This document shows, piece by piece, positions 26,440-57,772 of a DNA stretch of 64,000 nucleotides. Positions within the stretch are counted from its first letter, which is position 1; every line of letters begins with the position of its first letter. The DNA comes from Octopus vulgaris. Taxonomy: Eukaryota. The position numbers and the translations under genes were made by a program. The stretch is from assembly GCA_951406725.2 (NCBI GenBank), contig OX597824.1:78430001-78494000 (forward strand). The letters are read 5' to 3'. Below the pieces are notes generated by a model that worked only from the letters and a program-made list of their open reading frames with translations, ran no database searches and was not told where the DNA came from.

Positions 26440-26791
26440 TTTCTTTATTACCCACAAGGGGCTAAACATGGAGGGGACAAACAAGGACAGACAAACGGAT
26501 TAAGTCGATTTCATCGACCCCAGTGCGTAACTGGTACTTAATTTATCGACCCCGAAAGGATGAAAGGCAAAGTCGACATCGACGGAATTTGAACTCAGAA
26601 GGTAACGGCAGACGAAATACGGCTACGTATTTCGCCCAGCGTGCTAACGATTCTGCCAGCTCGCCGCCTTCTCAATGTGTGACGCTTACAGCACTTAGGT
26701 TTCCCAAGCGGGCACTCATCTAAGTACTAACTAGGCTCGACTTCGGTGATCGGACGGGAACCGGTGCTTTCAACGTGATAAGGCCGTAAGC
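26440..26791 (-). mobile_element. 5S rRNA + tRNA-SINE chimeric retroposon with 17-bp TSD
   Basis: TCGTCCGCTTATATTTG at 26423-26439 and 26792-26808 brackets 5S, a 13-nt linker and a full SINE (26440-26670). Confidence 0.85.
26684..26791 (-). pseudogene. 5S rRNA retropseudogene (~108 nt, ~10-nt deletion in box A region)
   Basis: Minus strand GCTTACGGCCTTATCACGTTGAAAGCACCGGTTCCCGTCCGATCACCGAAG^TCGAGCCTAGTTAGTACTTAGATGAGTGCCCGCTTGGGAAACCTAAGTGCTGTAAGC matches metazoan 5S; the terminal stem GCTTAC/GTAAGC is intact. Confidence 0.9.
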
Positions 26792-30129: not shown

Positions 30130-30890
30130 GTCTAGGGAGGCTCTAATCGATTACATCATGCCCAGTGTTCAACTGGTATTTATTTCAATGACCCCGAAAG
30201 GTGGAAAGATAAAGTCGGCCTCAGCGGAATTTGAACTCAGAAGTTAATGACGAATGAAATGTCGCTAAGAATTTTGCCCGGCGTGCTAACGTTTCTTATT
30301 TCTTTATTGCCCACAAGGAGCTTAACATAGAGGGGACAAACAAGGGCAGACAAAGGGATTAAGTAGATTACATCGACCCCTCTGCGTAACTGGTTCTTAT
30401 TTAATCGACCCCGAAAGGATGAAAGGCAAAGTCGACCTCGGCGGAATTTGAACTCAGAACGTAGCGGCAGACGAAATACCTATTTCTTTACTACCCACAA
30501 GGGGCTAAACACAGAGAGGACAAACAAGGACAGACAAATGGATTAAGTCGATTATATCGATCCCAGTGCGTAACTGGTACTTATTTAATCGACCCCGAAA
30601 GGATGAAAGGCAAAGTCGACCTCGGCGCAATTTGAACTCAGAACGTAGCGGCAGACGAAATACCACTAAGCGTTTCGCCCAGTGTGCTAACGTTTGTGCC
30701 GGCTTCTTTTTCGTCCGAGCTGGCAGAATCGTTAGCACGCCGGGCGAAATCCTTAGAGGCATTTCATCCGTCTTCACGTTCCGAATTCAAATTCCGCCGT
30801 GGTCGACTTTTCCTTTCATCCTTTCAGGGTCATTAAATTAAGTACCAAATTTGCTGACCTTGTACCAAAATTTGAAACCAATATTTGGAG
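30130..30890. mobile_element. Cluster of SINE family A copies (three tandem on -, one on +)
   Basis: Repeated gaccccgaaaggatgaaaggcaaagtcgacctcggcg blocks. Confidence 0.85.
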
Positions 30891-37474: not shown

Positions 37475-38470
37475 AGTTACATATCTAGACATGCTCATAT
37501 ATATTTAAATGATAAACTTCTGGAAAGTTTTACAGATTTTTACAGTTCCAGTAATGGATTGGATCTGTAATCTTCGAATTAGCTTCCTCCTTTCTGGTTT
37601 TGGGAAGTCTAATTTCTCAAGATTGGTATTTAGACAGTGTATTACATATAAACCTGAACTTGTAATCTGGATAGAGTAACTGCAAAGTTCTCAATAGTTC
37701 AACATAGGTGTTCTCTTTTTTACTGATCTTAAGCTTTATATTAACATCCACTGGGCAGCTAATTTCCACAACTGTGCACAGTTTCTCTTCTCAATCCCAA
37801 ATCATTATATCAGGTCTGTTGTGCTTACATTTCATTGGGGTTTTCACTGGTACATTCGCCCAGCATTCCTTTTCATTATGAGTGGCTATGGCTTCTAACA
37901 TATTATGGGTTTTTCTCTCTTTGTCCTCGGGATTATCCTTCCGGCGGATGTCATTATAGAGTGTCCTAGCTACAACGTCATGTCTCATCGGCAGATAATA
38001 CCGTGATGACATTTTCGGACAACTGCTTATGATGTGGGTGATATCTTCATTGTGAACTCCACAAAGTCTGCATCGGTTGTCACATTTTGCGGCTTTTCCT
38101 GCATCTCTATCCCTTTTGTGCATCAGGTACTTGGTTGACATTGCCTGTTTCTGGATTGCAAATGCATACCCTTCAAAGAGGGAGGTAGTAATCCGGCTAT
38201 CGATCCGTGATAAACTGGTTTGGTGATCGATGTTACTACCATCACGGAGTTTTCTACTACAATATATATGCATAGTCTTCGGCTCACCCTTTCATCTGAT
38301 GATATGTTGCGGTAGAGTCGTGTGACTTCTTTGGGAATGGATTCTAGGTTATCAGACAAAGAGTGTTGCTCAAAAAACTGCCTTCCAAGTCTTATGATAT
38401 TATTAGCCTCATGTATACAAACTTTGTCCAGGGATGCACTTCGACGCTTGGTAGTTAAAAGATGTTGCCG
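37475..38470 (-). mobile_element. RLE-type (R4/Dong/NeSL-like) non-LTR retrotransposon 3' fragment in (TATG)n
   Basis: CRLCG..EDITHIISSC zinc finger, RHDVVA, HNRPDIMIWD and downstream VVEISCP..K restriction-like endonuclease motifs. (TATG)n directly at the 5' break and nearby on the other side. Confidence 0.88.
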
Positions 38471-38670: not shown

Positions 38671-38674
<4 letters not shown>

Positions 38675-39554
38675 AGGAAAAAAATTTTTTTTTAAATGCA
38701 GAATGCTCAAATGAAAGAAAATTTTAATAAAATGAGAAATTGATAAAATATATAAATATATATTTATTCAACCGGTTTTCGTCATTGTATGACTTGTCAA
38801 GAATATTTATGTTTTAAAAAGTTTTTTTTTAAATTAGAAAGGGGAAAAAAAGAAAATTGCATTGTTTTTTGTAAAAGAATAATGATAAAAATGTACAAAA
38901 ATTAAAAAATAAGTTTCTCCGATACATTGTGAGTTCGTTGTGTATCTTGAGTTTTATGGTTGTTTACGAAAAAATTACCTTGAGGTGTTAAGATCCAAAG
39001 GGATTAAGAGCATGTGTTGTGTTGTTAAATTCAGCATGTTTGCAGGACAGGAAGTAGTAGTAATTGTGGTCCTGGTTTTCAGTTCCTGTGTTGTGAGTAA
39101 GGGGAGACAACTCTTTTGAGTTCTTCAATAAAACCCAAATTATAAAATTATCATTTTAGCTTCATTTGCGTTATCTTTTTTATATAATTGCTTGTTAACT
39201 TAACTTTCAGATTTTAACACTTTATTTATATTATTTTCTAATTATATAAATCTGCATAGACAATTGCATTTCAAATTGTCATATCATTTATAATAAAAAT
39301 GATAGTAATAACAACAATAGTAAAAATGATATTTAAAGAATATAAGTTTTAGCTTGAAGTGATGAATGCATGGTATCTTTATATATTTGTGTTAGTCCAT
39401 CCATGAAGAGTGAGGTAGAAGAAGGAAGTTTGATCAACGAGGAGTTTGCATATTAAGTTGTGTTTGGAATTTTTCAATAAAGAGATTCTCCTTGTTAATT
39501 CTCTCCTGTGTGGTGATCCCGTCTTTACATTGGTAGAAGGGGAATATATAGAAT
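38671..39554 (-). repeat. Inverted pseudo-LTR copy (arm 1 of ~885-bp inverted repeat)
   Basis: Reverse complement of 41719-42606; the differences seen are mostly homopolymer lengths. Confidence 0.95.
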
Positions 39555-41839
39555 CAAACACCACCGCTAACACAGACCCAAAATAAGAAAACAAAAATTA
39601 TAAACCTCTCCAGCAAAACACTGACACCAACCCAAATCAACATCCTAGCAAGAGGTTTGAAATTCACACCCACCCCAAGAACACCCAACATCAAGGATGA
39701 CGTTTCTGAATTCTGCAGAAAACTTCGCCTAACAGAAGCTTTGACAGATATCAACAATGGGGATGATTCATTGATCAGAAATAAAAGCAACTTCCTACCA
39801 CCAAAAGGGAGAAATAAAACACTGGACGATTTCTGCAAACACATCCAGAGTCTCCCCTTTACCCCAAGCAAAACCAAGGTAAAATCCAATTTCAGTAAGG
39901 AAGAATGGGAAAACCTACGTGACATACAACTGGATAAAAACCTCACCATCAAAGAAGCGGACAAAGGGAGTGCTGTGGTCCTTATGGACACGGAATTTTA
40001 TAAACACCTAGTGTTTTCCATGCTTAACAATAACATTTTCTATGAGGTTATTAACAACTACAAACAGCAAAAAACAATCAGAAACCTCACCACACTCATA
40101 CACCAACACGGTCAGGGACTCACAGAAAAAGAAAGGGATTATATCACCATTTTCAAATGCAAGCCCAGCCTTTTTTATGGCCTTCCTAAAATCCATAAAA
40201 ACAAATACATCACCGAAGCCTGCAAACTCTCCACTGACATCCACATCAACATCAAAGCACCGGAGGACCTAAAACTAAGGCCCATCGTGGCTGGTACCTC
40301 CTGTGAAACACACCGCCTGAGTAACTTCCTAGACATCCTTTTGAAACCTTTCCTTACCCACATCAAAAGTTTCATTAGGGATGATCTGGACATGCTCAAA
40401 CACCTCCCGAAAACAGTTAACGAGGAGGCACTCCTGGTATCCTTTGATGTCATCAACCTCTACACCAACATTCCACATGAGTATGGTATAGAGGCAATTG
40501 ACTTCTGGCTAGAAAAACACCCAGAGACATTCCCTGACCGCATTAACAAGTCTTTTATTACAGAATCTCTCAAGTTCATTCTGACAAACAATTTTTTCTC
40601 TTCGACGACACACACTACCGTCAAAAATGTGGCATTGCGATGGGTACCAAGGCTGCACCAGTCCTTGCGAACCTCATAATGGGTTACTTCGAACTGTCAC
40701 TCTATGAAATATCAAGCCAGAAATTTGGACATGTTTTCCACACCTACCTAATGGAAAACTGGAAAAGGTATTTAGATGATTGTTTCATCATATGGAAAGA
40801 ACCTTATGAAAAACTCCTGGAATTCAAAACCATACTAAACAACATACATCCCAACATCCAATTCACTATGGAATTAAGCAAACATCATCTCCCATTCCTT
40901 GATCTCCTAATTATAAAAACACCTAAGAACCAAATCATAACAGACATCTACCACAAACCTACAGACTCACAACAATACCTCCTCTTTAGTTCATGCCACC
41001 CAAAACACACCAAGACAAATATCCCTTTCAATTTAGCTAAAAGGGTATGCACCATTGTCTCGGATCCAAAAACACGAGAAATACGCCTTCAAGACCTCAA
41101 AAAAACACTATTACAACGTCAATATCCCTCCACCCTTATAGAGTATGGAATAAAACGCGCCAAAGAACTAGACAACACTACACTGAAAACCACCCAACCT
41201 AACACCACACACAACCTCAAAATACTTCCATACATTTCCACCCACAACCCCAAAAATATCGAAGCATACACCACAATCATACAAAACCTCAGTCTACTGT
41301 CAACAGACCCAAAAATGAAAAACATTATAAATACACACAAAATCCTCAAATGCAAAAGGCAACACAAATCTTTAAAAAAACTCTTGACAAATGCCAAACT
41401 TCACACACCACATCCACCCCCAACAGTAAAAAAATGTGCACGCTCAAACTGTGGTACCTGCCCCTTTCTACTTGAAGGCTCTGAATTTACCTTCAAACAG
41501 GGTACGAAGTTTAAAATCAAGACTAACTTCTCCTGTTCCTCCGAGAACCTTATCTACGTTCTCACATGCGCTGGTTGCCAACATAATTATGTTAGACAAA
41601 CGAGTCTCCCGTTACGTAAACGAGTAACGGTGCATAAAGAACAAATAAATCTCCCGGAATACCGACAAATTCCACTGAGTGACCACTTAGACTCATGTGC
41701 TAAAGACTTAAACCCCAAATTCTATATATTCCCCTTCTACCAATGTAAAGACGGGATCACCACACAGGAGAGAATTAACAAGGAGAATCTCTTTATTGAA
41801 AAATTCCAAACACAACTTAATATGCAAACTCCTCGTTGA
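39552..41839 (+). pseudogene. Penelope-like RT + GIY-YIG endonuclease polyprotein, N-terminally truncated, one frameshift at the T-run near 40592-40597
   Basis: Frame open from the inversion junction. Motifs: INLSSKTL..LARGLKFTP, KEADKGSAVV, YGLPKIHK, LRPIVA, SFDVINLYTNIP, then after the shift GIAMGTKAAP, WKRYLDD, LPFLD, DIYHKPT, C-x4-C-x2-C linker, NLIYVLTCAGCQHNYVRQT (GIY-YIG, YIG present as YVR), and His residues of the CCHH motif. Stop TGA at 41837-41839. Confidence 0.93.
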
Positions 41840-42472
41840 TCAAACTTCCTTTCTCTACCTACCTCACTCTTCATGGATGGACTAACACAAATATATAAAG
41901 ATACCATGCATTCATCACTTCAAGCTAAAACTTATATTCTTTAAATATCATTTTTACTATTGTTGTTATTACTATCATTTTTATTATAAATGATATGACA
42001 ATTTGAAATGCAATTGTCTATGCAGATTTATATAATTAGAAAATAATATAAATAAAGTGTTAAAATCTGAAAGTTAAGTTAACAAGCAATTATATAAAAA
42101 AGATAACGCAAATGAAGCTAAAATGATAATTTTATAATTTGGGTTTTATTGAAGAACTCAAAAGAGTTGTCTCCCCTTACTCACAACACAGGAACTGAAA
42201 AACCAGGACCACAATTACTACTACTTCCTGTCCTGCAAACATGCTGAATTTAACAACACAACACATGCTCTTAATCCCTTTGGATCTTAACACCTCAAGG
42301 TAATTTTTTCGTAAACAACCATAAAACTCAAGATACACAACGAACTCACAATGTATCGGAGAAATTATTTTTTAATTTTTGTACATTTTTATCATTATTC
42401 TTTTACAAAAAACAATGCAATTTTCTTTTTTTCCCCTTTCTAATTTAAAAAAAAACTTTTTTAAAACATAAA

Positions 42473-42512
42473 TATTCTTGACAAGTCATACAATGACGAA
42501 AACCGGTTGAAT
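42473..42512 (+). ncRNA. Hammerhead-like motif with non-canonical core in the Penelope pLTR (mirror copy on - strand at ~38765-38804)
   Basis: tattc-TTGACAA-gtca(tacaa)tgac-GAAA-accggt-t-gaata: stem I tattc/gaata, 4-bp stem II, palindromic AACCGGTT stem III; core deviates from CUGANGA. Confidence 0.5.
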
Positions 42513-42651
42513 AAATATATATTTATATATTTTATCAATTTCTCATTTTATTAAAATTTTCTTTCATTTGAGCATTCTGCATTTTTAAAAAAAATTTTTC
42601 CTTACTTATCATTTCTCCACGTGCGGTCAACACAACCCCACCATTTATTGA

Positions 42652-42719
<68 letters not shown>

Positions 42720-43799: not shown

Positions 43800-44200
43800 T
43801 CTCTGTTCGTCACCTCCTCCGCCTTCCTCGTTCTGTGTCTCTTGGCTGTTTTTCTTTTTTTTTTTTTTTTTTGGTCTCGGCTCGCTCAGCTTTTGCTTGT
43901 TCGAGCCTCCCATTTTCCTTTTGTTGTTTAATTTTCCTCCTGTTTCTCTCTCTCTCTCTTTCTTCCTCCTCGCTGCCTGATTCTTCTACACCTTCTTTAC
44001 AATATTTTTTAATGTGACCAAGTTGTCCACAGTGGAAACATCGGGGCTTACACCCCTCAACAAAGGTATTTAGAACTTCCTCCCCTACTTCCACGATTTC
44101 TGGTAGCTGTTCTAAAACTTTTGGGGTAGCCTGCAGTATGAGGTTAAGCGTTTGACCAATCCAATATGTATTCTCTGTGACGGTAGCCTGCAGAAGGTTA
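43800..44200 (-). mobile_element. LINE ORF1 (gag-like zinc knuckle) fragment, probably L1/Tx1
   Basis: CFHCGQLGHIKKYC (CX2CX4HX4C) preceded by VEGCKPR. Confidence 0.65.
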
Positions 44201-45124
44201 TAATTATCTTTCCTGTGACAACAGAAACAAGAAGAGATAGTGAGAGAATGTTGTGGTGAAAGAGTACAGCAATGTTCACCAACTACCTTCCGAAGCCTTG
44301 TTGAGCTTTAGGTTTTTTCACTCAATAAACACCTGGTCTGGGAATCGAAACGGCGATCTTATGGCCGCGAGTCAGCTGCCCTAACCACTGGGCCATTGCA
44401 CCTCCACGAATGAAGATATAATAAATAAATGTCGACATAAAACTAATGATAAATATTTCTGCCGTATACTATGGTTGAATAAACTGGAAATTAAAATTAA
44501 TTAGTATAATCAATAAAGTTTTAATTTACAGAATTAAATCCACATTTTTTTTTTATAAATTAATCAGAAGAGACGATAGGGAGAAACAGATATGATATAA
44601 ACAGACCCTTTTGTTGTGCTGAGATTGATGAGTTCGGTGCAATAATTGCAGCCGGATGGAAACAATTAATGATAGATAATTATTATTTATGGTTGCTAGT
44701 CTACAGTTTCTTCTGGCAACTTATTGTTATACATTATCTGACGTATATAATTGAATATAATTAAATGTTATTAAATATAGATAGAAAATATTCGTATTTT
44801 AACGCAACATACAGTGACATATTTGTTTGTACGTACAAGCTTATATATGTATGTTAACATGTACATATATATATATGTCTGTGTGTGTGTGTACATTATA
44901 CTCATGGTATACTATATACGTATACGATATACACTGTATATATTTTAGTTTTATATGTATTTGGTTGTCAGATAAATTCATTCGTTTCGTTTTAATATTA
45001 TTTGATTTAAAACGAAAAACATTTTGGTCGTAATTTCAAGTTTTTAATTTTTGTGTTTTATTTTTATCTTTTCAGTTTATTCTTTTCCAAATTTGAATAA
45101 ATTTTACCTTTTTACGGACATATT

Positions 45125-55878: not shown

Positions 55879-56025
55879 TGTATGTATGTATATATATATA
55901 TATATATATATATTGGCCTGCTCGCTTAGCCAGCGGGGTGGCGTCATTCGAAGGCTAAAACAATGCGAACGCATTGTGACCAGCGATGTTTAACAACATC
56001 TGATGGTCTGGTCGGTCACGTGATA

Positions 56026-56088
<63 letters not shown>

Positions 56089-56459: not shown

Positions 56460-56890
56460 GTGTGTGTGTGTGTACCAAAATCAGTATGATACCGTGCGTA
56501 TATCGATGAAAGCCTGCTAAAGTACGGTGTACGCCTACCGCACTTTACCATGCTTTCAACAATCTACGGTACACAGATGGCTAGTTTGAAATAATACAGC
56601 TTCTGTTGCTCATAACGAGTGTGTGTATGTGTGTGTGCTTGTGCGTGTGTGTGTTTGTGTGCGTGTGTATCTTCATGTCTGTGCTTGTCTCTCACTTTTC
56701 ACTTGACAATCGGTGGTGGTGTATTTACGTCCCCCGTTTCGTAGTTGTTCGGCGAAAGAGACCGATAAAATAGTTACCAGGATTTATAAAAAATAAGACA
56801 TCCTTCAAGACGGTGCCCCAGTATGGCCGTAGTCTAACTACAATATAAAAGATATACATGTGTGTGTGCGCGTGTACATATATATATATA

Positions 56891-57379
56891 TGTTCGAAGG
56901 TTTATAATGGACGCAGGTTGTGTGTCAAATATCTAGCTTGAGGCGGTGGGCTCTTGGAGCTAATCAGCGACAGCTTTAGTCTTATATTTATAAGACTGCC
57001 ATATAAGTATGGCGATAACTATTAATTTCCAGTAACGCTGCCGTAATTTCCTTTAGAGAGACTTAGTAATTTTAATATTTCTATTATTGAAAACAAGTGG
57101 ATGTATTCCACTGAAACTAGGTAAATAGATTCTTCGAACAGGGACACTCAGTAGCGACACCTGCTGGGTCTGACTACGCTGCACTGATAAAGGGCAAATA
57201 CCCTGAAACATGTCTGCAGCTGTCTGACTGGCAGGATGAAGCGGCTGACCTCCCTGTTCGAAGGTTTATAATGGACGCAGGTTGTGTGTCAAATAGCTAG
57301 CTTGAGGCGGTGGGCTCTTGGAGCTAATCAGCGACAGCTTTAGTCTTATATTTATAAGACTGCCATATAAGTATGGCGA

Positions 57380-57386
<7 letters not shown>
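56891..57386 (+). mobile_element. Retrozyme-like non-autonomous element: 364-bp monomer plus 132-bp terminal direct repeat, in (TA)n
   Basis: 56891-57022 recurs at 57255-57386 (1 mismatch seen). Contains a hammerhead. TA runs on both sides. Confidence 0.8.
57178..57220 (+). ncRNA. Minimal type I hammerhead ribozyme (G8A core variant)
   Basis: gctgca-CTGATAA-aggg(caaata)ccct-GAAA-catg-TC-tgcagc. Palindromic ACATGT, GUC with predicted cut after 57214. Confidence 0.8.
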
Positions 57387-57423
<37 letters not shown>

Positions 57424-57772
57424 TATATATATTTATAATCCAAAATGTAACTGCATGTGGATTGTTGGCGACTTTTTTGCTCCGTCTTCCTTTTCTCTTG
57501 GACTTTCCTCTATCTTCTCTTTCCGAAGGAGAGCTTTGCTCGAAACGTAAAACACACCCTCTTTCCTTCCCTGAGCGTCTTTCAACACTTTGCATATACC
57601 ACGTCCTCGCATTCTTGTTTTTCCTTGTTTTGTTTTGTTTTTTTGTTTTTTTTTCGATTGACTATTTACCGCAAGCTCGCACGGTTCACCATCCTTCCGA
57701 CTGGAATTCTTTCTGGAATTCTTTCTACCAATCGCATTGCTAATCTTCGTCAACGAAGCCAAGCCATCATAT

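Follow-up and report, generated by a model that had tools for sequence, protein, structure and literature searches.

Retrozymes are already known from mussels, corals and salamanders, and an element of this kind is not surprising in itself. The non-LTR retrozymes described in the accessible text of PMC7229834 are non-coding, head-to-tail repeats of 150-450 nt with a GC content below 50%, a type I hammerhead ribozyme and a self-paired RNA, and they occur in many copies in genomes that also hold Penelope-like elements (PLEs). The unit that we describe here is alike in these features. The retrozymes of the mussel Mytilus galloprovincialis measure 350-390 nt (PMC7229834) and the present unit 364 nt. 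The mussel units accumulate as circles (PMC7229834), whereas the present unit is known from DNA and contig sequence. The axolotl and mussel retrozymes are closed by RtcB in vitro (PMC7229834). Besides these, the literature used for comparison includes PMC7151607 and PMC8967140.

Li, Clavereau and Pollet (2026) derive vertebrate retrozymes from the pseudo-LTRs of PLEs, and in Xenopus they found 8 of 9 predicted retrozyme dimers uncleaved in vitro (bioRxiv 10.64898/2026.07.22.740005). The same preprint and PMC7761336 state that the enzyme moving animal retrozymes, and the use of a circle, are unresolved. Penelope-like elements are recognised by a bias towards (TA)n, by partial tandem copies truncated at the 5' end, by upstream copies in inverted orientation and by a tail on one side only (PMC8557442 and its own preprint); Octopus has Naiads as well, which share the preference for (TA)n (PMC8557442). 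Searches of open-licence text gave no description of a cephalopod retrozyme, although the supplements of PMC7229834 and PMC4209133 may list cephalopod or U3:A8 cases; the word octopus is absent from two supplementary files of PMC4209133.

The window, which is the whole stretch of 64,000 nt that was analysed, is microsatellite-rich animal DNA. At 56891..57386 on the forward strand it carries a non-coding insert of 496 nt, which amounts to 1.36 units (496/364) of a 364-nt repeat. The full monomer in its genomic register lies at 57023..57386 (+). It is preceded by a 5' partial repeat at 56891..57022 (+), either a 5'-truncated second pass or an upstream copy resembling a pseudo-LTR, and it ends in the 3' copy of the same 132 nt at 57255..57386 (+). 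The two copies of this direct repeat (56891-57022 and 57255-57386) are spaced by 364 nt, differ by a single mismatch (the private T56932 against G57296) and do not extend past either edge. (TA)n adjoins the insert at both ends, with the left flank at 56876..56890 being the target microsatellite and the right flank covering 57384..57437 (neither with a strand); the 3' end of the insert shares TA microhomology with the microsatellite, and a target-site duplication is unreadable in such flanks. The preliminary description of a 364-bp monomer with 132 bp repeated inside (TA)n is thus borne out by the repeat comparison and the flanks.

The monomer begins with an AU-rich arm of short hairpins (57023..57127, +), and two adjoining hairpins are found directly before the 3' end site (56978..57013, +), with a twin at 57342-57377. 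The GC content of the unit is 42.6%. Within the unit there is no ORF of at least 120 aa, and no LTR, PBS or PPT was seen; within the 64-kb window there is neither a second copy of the unit nor a tRNA. A scan of the window for bacterial promoters and terminators, a method unsuited to animal DNA, gave counts at chance level.

A canonical type I hammerhead occupies 57172..57224 (+). It consists of a UAC bulge (57175-77), a helix I of 6 bp (57178-83/57215-20), the core CTGATAA at positions 3-9 (57184..57190, +), a helix II of 4 bp (57191-94/57201-04) with CAAATA as loop 2, the GAA (57205-07), the palindromic helix III ACATGT (57208-13) and a GUC with the predicted cut after C57214. The cleavage site proposed earlier, C57214/T57215, agrees with this anatomy. 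These proportions match the canonical retrozyme hammerhead, with 6 bp in helix I, 4 bp in helix II and a short palindromic helix III (PMC4209133). At position 10.1-11.1 an A-U pair replaces the usual G-C. From the likeness to the Schistosoma ribozyme, a tertiary contact between the hammerhead loops would be expected. In terms of secondary structure alone, the lowest-energy fold of the single hammerhead is better than its catalytic fold by 6.0-6.3 kcal/mol, whether position 3 is C or U. This predicted gap agrees with cleavage in dimeric form by way of the palindromic helix III, for which the axolotl HHR_Amex1 is a precedent (PMC7229834).

The locus contains one hammerhead, which is not part of the 132-nt repeat. 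When the 64 kb were scanned with a relaxed pattern, this hammerhead and the two copies of the hammerhead of a Penelope element came up and nothing else; of 100 random windows 3 had a site, a background of 0.03 per window. None of the 21 Rfam matches at E <= 10 belongs to a hammerhead family; a weak match to Hairpin-meta2 was dismissed as chance, with 14 bits against a threshold of 210. Hammerhead pattern scans of metagenome, viral and prokaryote genome collections gave 0 matches. Two other hammerhead classes were considered and rejected. A plant-type LTR retrozyme would have type III hammerheads in two LTRs, together with a tRNA primer site and a polypurine tract, whereas the hammerhead here is type I, single and outside the 132-nt repeat. 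The minimal PLE-type hammerhead is ruled out by the 6-bp helix I, the 4-bp helix II, the CAAAUA loop and the UAC bulge.

The unit stretch, as a whole or in part, is present in 20 sequencing runs from 10 studies. We aligned contigs from four runs of four studies (X1, X2, X9 and X17) to the monomer 56891-57254 at 82% likeness, which gave 2,962 contigs in X1, 2,246 in X2, 174 in X9 and 20 in X17, under two organism labels; runs labelled as organisms C and D were left out of the counts. X1 and X2 are DNA runs. X1 is possibly the sample of the window itself, and X2 alone gives an equal result. X9 and X17 serve as extra sequence samples and not as evidence of expression, since none of the runs is on record as RNA and the RNA origin of these two is a guess. 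The comparisons that follow cover the 40 best-supported variant rows out of 68, along with 24 loose contig ends out of 357 and 32 contig pieces out of 5,464. The 364-nt unit is a many-copy family, for which contig depth yields no copy number; the contigs from four runs support the retrozyme-like unit of the preliminary description in this sense.

The family also decides how the core of the hammerhead is to be read. T is found at position 57184 in 99.9, 99.6, 99.4 and 100% of the depth of other copies in the four runs, and no A>G change at 57189 is among the best-supported 40 variant rows, so that A8 is the family norm. A string of contig letters in X1 and X2, taken on the other strand, reads TTGATAA, and the family core is U3-UGAU-A8. 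U3:A8 is a covariant of C3:G8 that has been described as natural and as active in vitro (PMC3088659). It had been suggested that a G8A change in the core may inactivate this copy. The copy is indeed probably inactive, but G8A as the lesion and A8G as its repair are rejected on the U3:A8 core of the family depth. What this copy has suffered is U3C, with a C3/A8 mismatch as the result, and some pairs of the rod described below are weakened as well. With a single hammerhead, this mismatch and the weakened rod pairs, the locus would be unable to release a monomer unaided, and judged by its sequence the copy is likely dead.

The hammerhead is placed at the apex of a long predicted rod, which prolongs helix I (57128..57267, +) and would pair the two ends of the cleaved monomer. 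The stretch 57132-57263 folds at -64.8 kcal/mol (z = -7.87; none of 200 shuffles equal), the linear monomer 57023-57386 at -128.4 kcal/mol (z = -6.64; none of 100 shuffles equal) and the monomer folded as a circle at -122.4 kcal/mol (z = -6.6; none of 100 shuffles equal). Both the shuffle test and the anatomy confirm the rod with its apical hammerhead as first described, and the two small hairpins noticed with it are present in the predicted linear and circular folds. The accompanying claim that the outermost stem depends on a circular or multimeric RNA does not hold. The region 57132-57263 is contiguous, and position 57255 merely marks the start of the 5' repeat in this copy. Moreover, the linear monomer cut at the hammerhead has a predicted fold of -127.8 kcal/mol, in which 46 of the first 60 nt pair with the last 90. 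Since the cut linear monomer also pairs end to end, the rod does not speak for a circle. In the predicted fold, it would keep the monomer ends together for ligation.

Thirteen of the best-supported 40 variant rows lie inside 57128-57254. Five of these turn a mismatch or a G-U into a Watson-Crick pair (57128, 57130, 57131, 57146 and 57147G), with the pairing partners of 57146-47 picked post hoc by extending the adjoining stems; except at 57146, the pair-restoring letter is the family majority. Two rows, 57178 and 57220, would if linked turn the terminal G-C of helix I into U-A; their depth shares are unequal (5-30% against 29-63%). The others comprise one that keeps a G-U wobble (57217), two in loop 2, the row of core position 3, one by which a pair is lost (57142) and one that remains a mismatch (57147A). 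Between 22 and 47% of the depth has an altered loop 2 at 57198-57199. On the modelled pairing, the family rod is better paired than the rod of this copy, and the pattern would fit a structure under selection, which we counted in favour of the best explanation.

In a second subfamily the 5' strand of the rod is different at 57127-57148 (13 contigs in X1 and 18 in X2), and X9 and X17 contain a further variant. Because the divergent subfamily drops out near 57127-57148, the depth profile is unusable as a map of ends. There are also rearranged forms of the unit. A joined form, 57209 to 56918, is found in X1 and X17 and has lost about 72 nt, among them the cut site and the 3' strand of the rod. X1 and X2 share a joint in inverted orientation, from 57226 to 57186, within the hammerhead. 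Contigs of 2 kb with equal size and depth in X1 and X2 terminate in the unit piece 57104-57228 and probably represent one insertion common to the two organism labels.

Contigs that run across the borders of the unit show how it is joined to itself. Among the pieces listed, 57022/57023 is bridged with at least 31 letters on each side by records 9 and 10 of X17, record 18 of X2 and record 26 of X9. The cut site 57214/57215 is bridged in the same way, again among the pieces listed, by record 24 of X2, records 28 and 32 of X9 and records 14 and 15 of X17. Position 57254 rejoins 56891 in all four runs, often with one additional letter, and the longest short side is 37 (X17). No contig spans the whole 364-nt unit among the 32 of 5,464 pieces listed. 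As these pieces bridge both the junction and the cut site and 57254 is joined to 56891, the two ends of the unit meet, which is what either a circle or a tandem would give; contigs are blind to strand, to ends and to circularity.

This continuity bears on an account of the repeat in which a monomer was inserted and the 132 nt were duplicated later by DNA-level slippage or unequal exchange between the TA runs. Such a local duplication would be expected to place the same letters in both repeats, and both do have G56950 and A57005, which are held by 0-2.3% and 0-6.4% of the family depth. It is opposed by 57022/57023 being continuous in other copies and runs, with no scar specific to this locus, and by the (TA)n border that a monomer starting at 57023 would need and that is not present. 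We consider a later local duplication very improbable.

The two rare letters indicate that both repeats come from one source and not from two random RNAs of the family. Since the insert crosses the cut site unbroken and its unit starts 192 nt upstream of the cut, the template was either a ligated circle or an uncleaved tandem; a linear cleaved monomer is excluded. The ends of other copies are informative as well. Among 24 of the 357 loose ends, contigs run into (TA)n at two places only, 57021 (one contig in X17) and 57087 in the AU-rich arm (15 contigs in X2 and 2 in X9), and the contig ends that run into (TA)n finish in TA or TAT. Free circular permutation of the end points, which had been named as a point to check, is not shown by these 3' ends. 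The few data suggest that priming uses microhomology within the AU-rich arm and that the ends are not freely permuted. Two contigs of X2 have a 5' junction identical to that of the insert 56891-57386 and may represent the same locus in another individual.

An uncleaved tandem would do without any circle. A linear read-through of an uncleaved tandem locus, or a jump to a sister RNA, would give the same family with the same Penelope-type mobiliser, and the hammerhead would trim transcripts or stand idle. 5'-truncated partial tandems are the normal product of Penelope-like elements, including Naiads and the non-autonomous Chlamys (MRC1), which are without canonical hammerheads (PMC8557442). The shared rare letters fit one tandem donor equally well, and the clustering of 3' ends at just two sites among the loose ends listed points in the same direction. 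If cutting and closing were not selected for, such a linear template would hardly account for the canonical hammerhead with tertiary loops, the fixed compensatory core pair and the rod that pairs the ends. In addition, circles were found for every animal repeat of this kind that was examined by northern blot (coral, mussel and axolotl; PMC7229834). We regard an origin without a circle as rather unlikely, yet as the most serious of the alternatives.

The reading that we prefer, and hold to be somewhat probable for the full route, is that the copy at 56891-57386 is a likely dead non-LTR retrozyme that probably passed through an RNA circle. Source loci with at least two units would be transcribed, and the U3:A8 hammerhead would cut the RNA after the GUC (C57214), probably in a double form made by way of the palindromic helix III. 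The ends of the released monomer would be brought together by the predicted rod and then closed by a host ligase. A GIY-YIG endonuclease of the Neptune/Nematis or Naiad type would nick (TA)n, a UA word of the AU-rich arm would serve the nick for priming, and one full unit and a further 132 nt would be reverse-transcribed. Penelope-like enzymes would thereby likely write more than one round of an RNA circle into (TA)n. Weighing against this reading are the predicted energy gap of the catalytic fold, the A-U pair at 10.1-11.1, the altered loop 2, the unequal shares of 57178 and 57220, the mostly uncleaved Xenopus dimers and the lack of likeness to the PLEs compared below; an uncleaved tandem transcript would leave the same pattern in the DNA.

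A Penelope-like element is present in the window itself at 38672..42654 (+), in (TA)n on both sides. It has a reverse transcriptase, a CX4CxxC linker and a GIY-YIG domain, is frameshifted near 40600 and carries a tail of about 48 nt at its right end only. By the sequence of its CX4CxxC linker the element is assigned to the Neptune or Nematis type, and the closest named relatives of its ORF are labelled Argonauta hians (56% and 53%) and bivalves; an octopod host is likely. An inverted 5'-truncated copy lies at 38672-39554. The hammerhead at its 3' end (42473..42513, +) has the core TTGACAA (U3:A8) and is mirrored at about 38765-38805 on the reverse strand; it seems to have one extra A in its GAAA. 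The unit has no sequence likeness to this element (best E 0.84), which is rejected as the direct parent of the unit, nor to any of 78 related PLE loci (best E 0.065).

A hammerhead scan of these 78 loci gave 5 sites, of which 2 inside an ORF (L002) were dropped. The three credible hammerheads are downstream of the ORFs, at 1790 in L010 with U3:A8 and a long palindromic helix III, and at 2586 in L012 and 2722 in L032 with C3:G8. As the unrelated locus L010 also has U3:A8, the core pair common to the unit and the PLE of the window is only a hint. By analogy, a Penelope-like element is the likely mobiliser of the retrozyme unit, with the element in the window being an example of the kind; Naiads are equally possible as mobilisers as the Neptune/Nematis type.

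A closer tie to PLEs would exist if some longer autonomous Penelope-like element had the unit as its pseudo-LTR (3' end) and the insert were a heavily 5'-truncated copy of that element. There are precedents in Xenopus, where retrozymes match PLE pseudo-LTRs, with 24 of 57 families matching Repbase and 21 of 22 elements being PLEs (bioRxiv 10.64898/2026.07.22.740005), and in Schistosoma, where U3:A8 is reported in PLE hammerheads (PMC4209133). Record 10 of X17, a contig of 1,982 nt, has 1,747 letters outside the unit on its 5' side. Against a pseudo-LTR, 57022 runs into 57023 in many contigs, and the unit is self-closing, without an ORF and without likeness to the PLE end in the window or to the 78 related loci. 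Moreover, animal PLE hammerheads are usually minimal and without tertiary loops in the accessible parts of PMC4209133, PMC6155905 and PMC7761336, and the hammerhead at 57172-57224 is canonical. This origin appears improbable to us.

Several other features were detected in the window. At 55913-56030 there is an insert of 118 nt between two (TA)n runs, which has small hairpins, is single in the window and may be the end of another microsatellite-targeting element. A 5S rRNA-like sequence with internal deletions (26683-26791, reverse strand) is the only Rfam match at the gathering threshold, with 64 bits, and is probably a pseudogene or a 5S-derived repeat. A tandem dimer of a 184-nt unit (30297-30664) resembles the common interspersed repeat of the window, and the interspersed repeats are presumably octopus SINEs by their appearance. 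Other retroelement fragments are found at 37791-38291 and 43810-44307, both on the reverse strand, with a weak zf-RVT match and a CCHC zinc knuckle.

We tentatively put forward a more specific proposal, which may well prove wrong: the unit belongs to a large octopod retrozyme family on a U3:A8 hammerhead that is missed by standard CUGANGA searches and Rfam, and its copies keep the footprints of the step that the retrozyme cycle still lacks, namely target-primed rolling-circle reverse transcription of an RNA circle into (TA)n by a Neptune-type Penelope enzyme with a pseudo-LTR of the same core. If so, mapping the ends of copies would identify the mobilising enzyme and the priming rule directly. 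A many-copy family that runs on U3:A8 means that hammerhead counts with the usual descriptors can miss whole families. Furthermore, ends anchored in (TA)n, copies of more than one unit and private marker letters make the question of the mobiliser testable from the assembly.

Compared with the retrozymes of PMC7229834, the unit differs in several respects. U3:A8 is family-wide here and is not mentioned for retrozymes in the accessible text of that source. The unit keeps tertiary loops of the Schistosoma type, which the mussel ribozyme is mostly without (PMC7229834). Unlike the retrozymes described there, it lies in (TA)n without a readable target-site duplication and with one hammerhead at the locus (PMC7229834). 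In non-LTR retrozymes such a duplication, where there is one, exceeds 4 bp. The vertebrate retrozymes are, like the unit, dispersed monomer-type offspring of a tandem hammerhead repeat alongside a Neptune-type PLE, and a PLE is proposed to move them, but they match PLE pseudo-LTRs, whereas no matching pseudo-LTR was found for the unit in the window or among the 78 related loci; the available text of the preprint has no mollusc among the classes sampled (bioRxiv 10.64898/2026.07.22.740005). By the definition given there, two units with complete hammerheads, the locus 56891-57386 is not an active retrozyme (bioRxiv 10.64898/2026.07.22.740005).

The MRC1-type Chlamys elements and the Naiads share microsatellite targeting, partial tandems and 5' truncation with the unit, but they are without canonical hammerheads, and MRC1 resembles the 3' end of its partner, which is unseen for the unit (PMC8557442). 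The hammerheads of the Cercyon PLE of Schistosoma mansoni are type I with a palindromic helix III and U3-A8, as in the unit (PMC4209133). Cercyon elements also occur as head-to-tail copies of more than one unit, for which a circle was proposed as the template, and the insert here is likewise longer than one unit (PMC4209133). In contrast to the canonical, ORF-less unit, the Cercyon ribozymes are minimal, with a long helix II, a short helix I and a loop 1 that is ill defined, and flank an ORF (PMC4209133). The Sm-alpha hammerhead of Schistosoma mansoni has exactly the loop 2 of the unit, CAAAUA, and in the internal loop of helix I both carry UAC on the 5' strand and a leading U on the 3' strand (PMC2632901); the unit differs from it in the U:A pair at core 3:8 and in the flanks of the internal loop (PMC2632901). 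By analogy with the described systems, cleavage, a circular RNA and mobilisation by a PLE would also be expected of the 364-nt unit, which by every feature that could be compared is very probably an animal non-LTR retrozyme.
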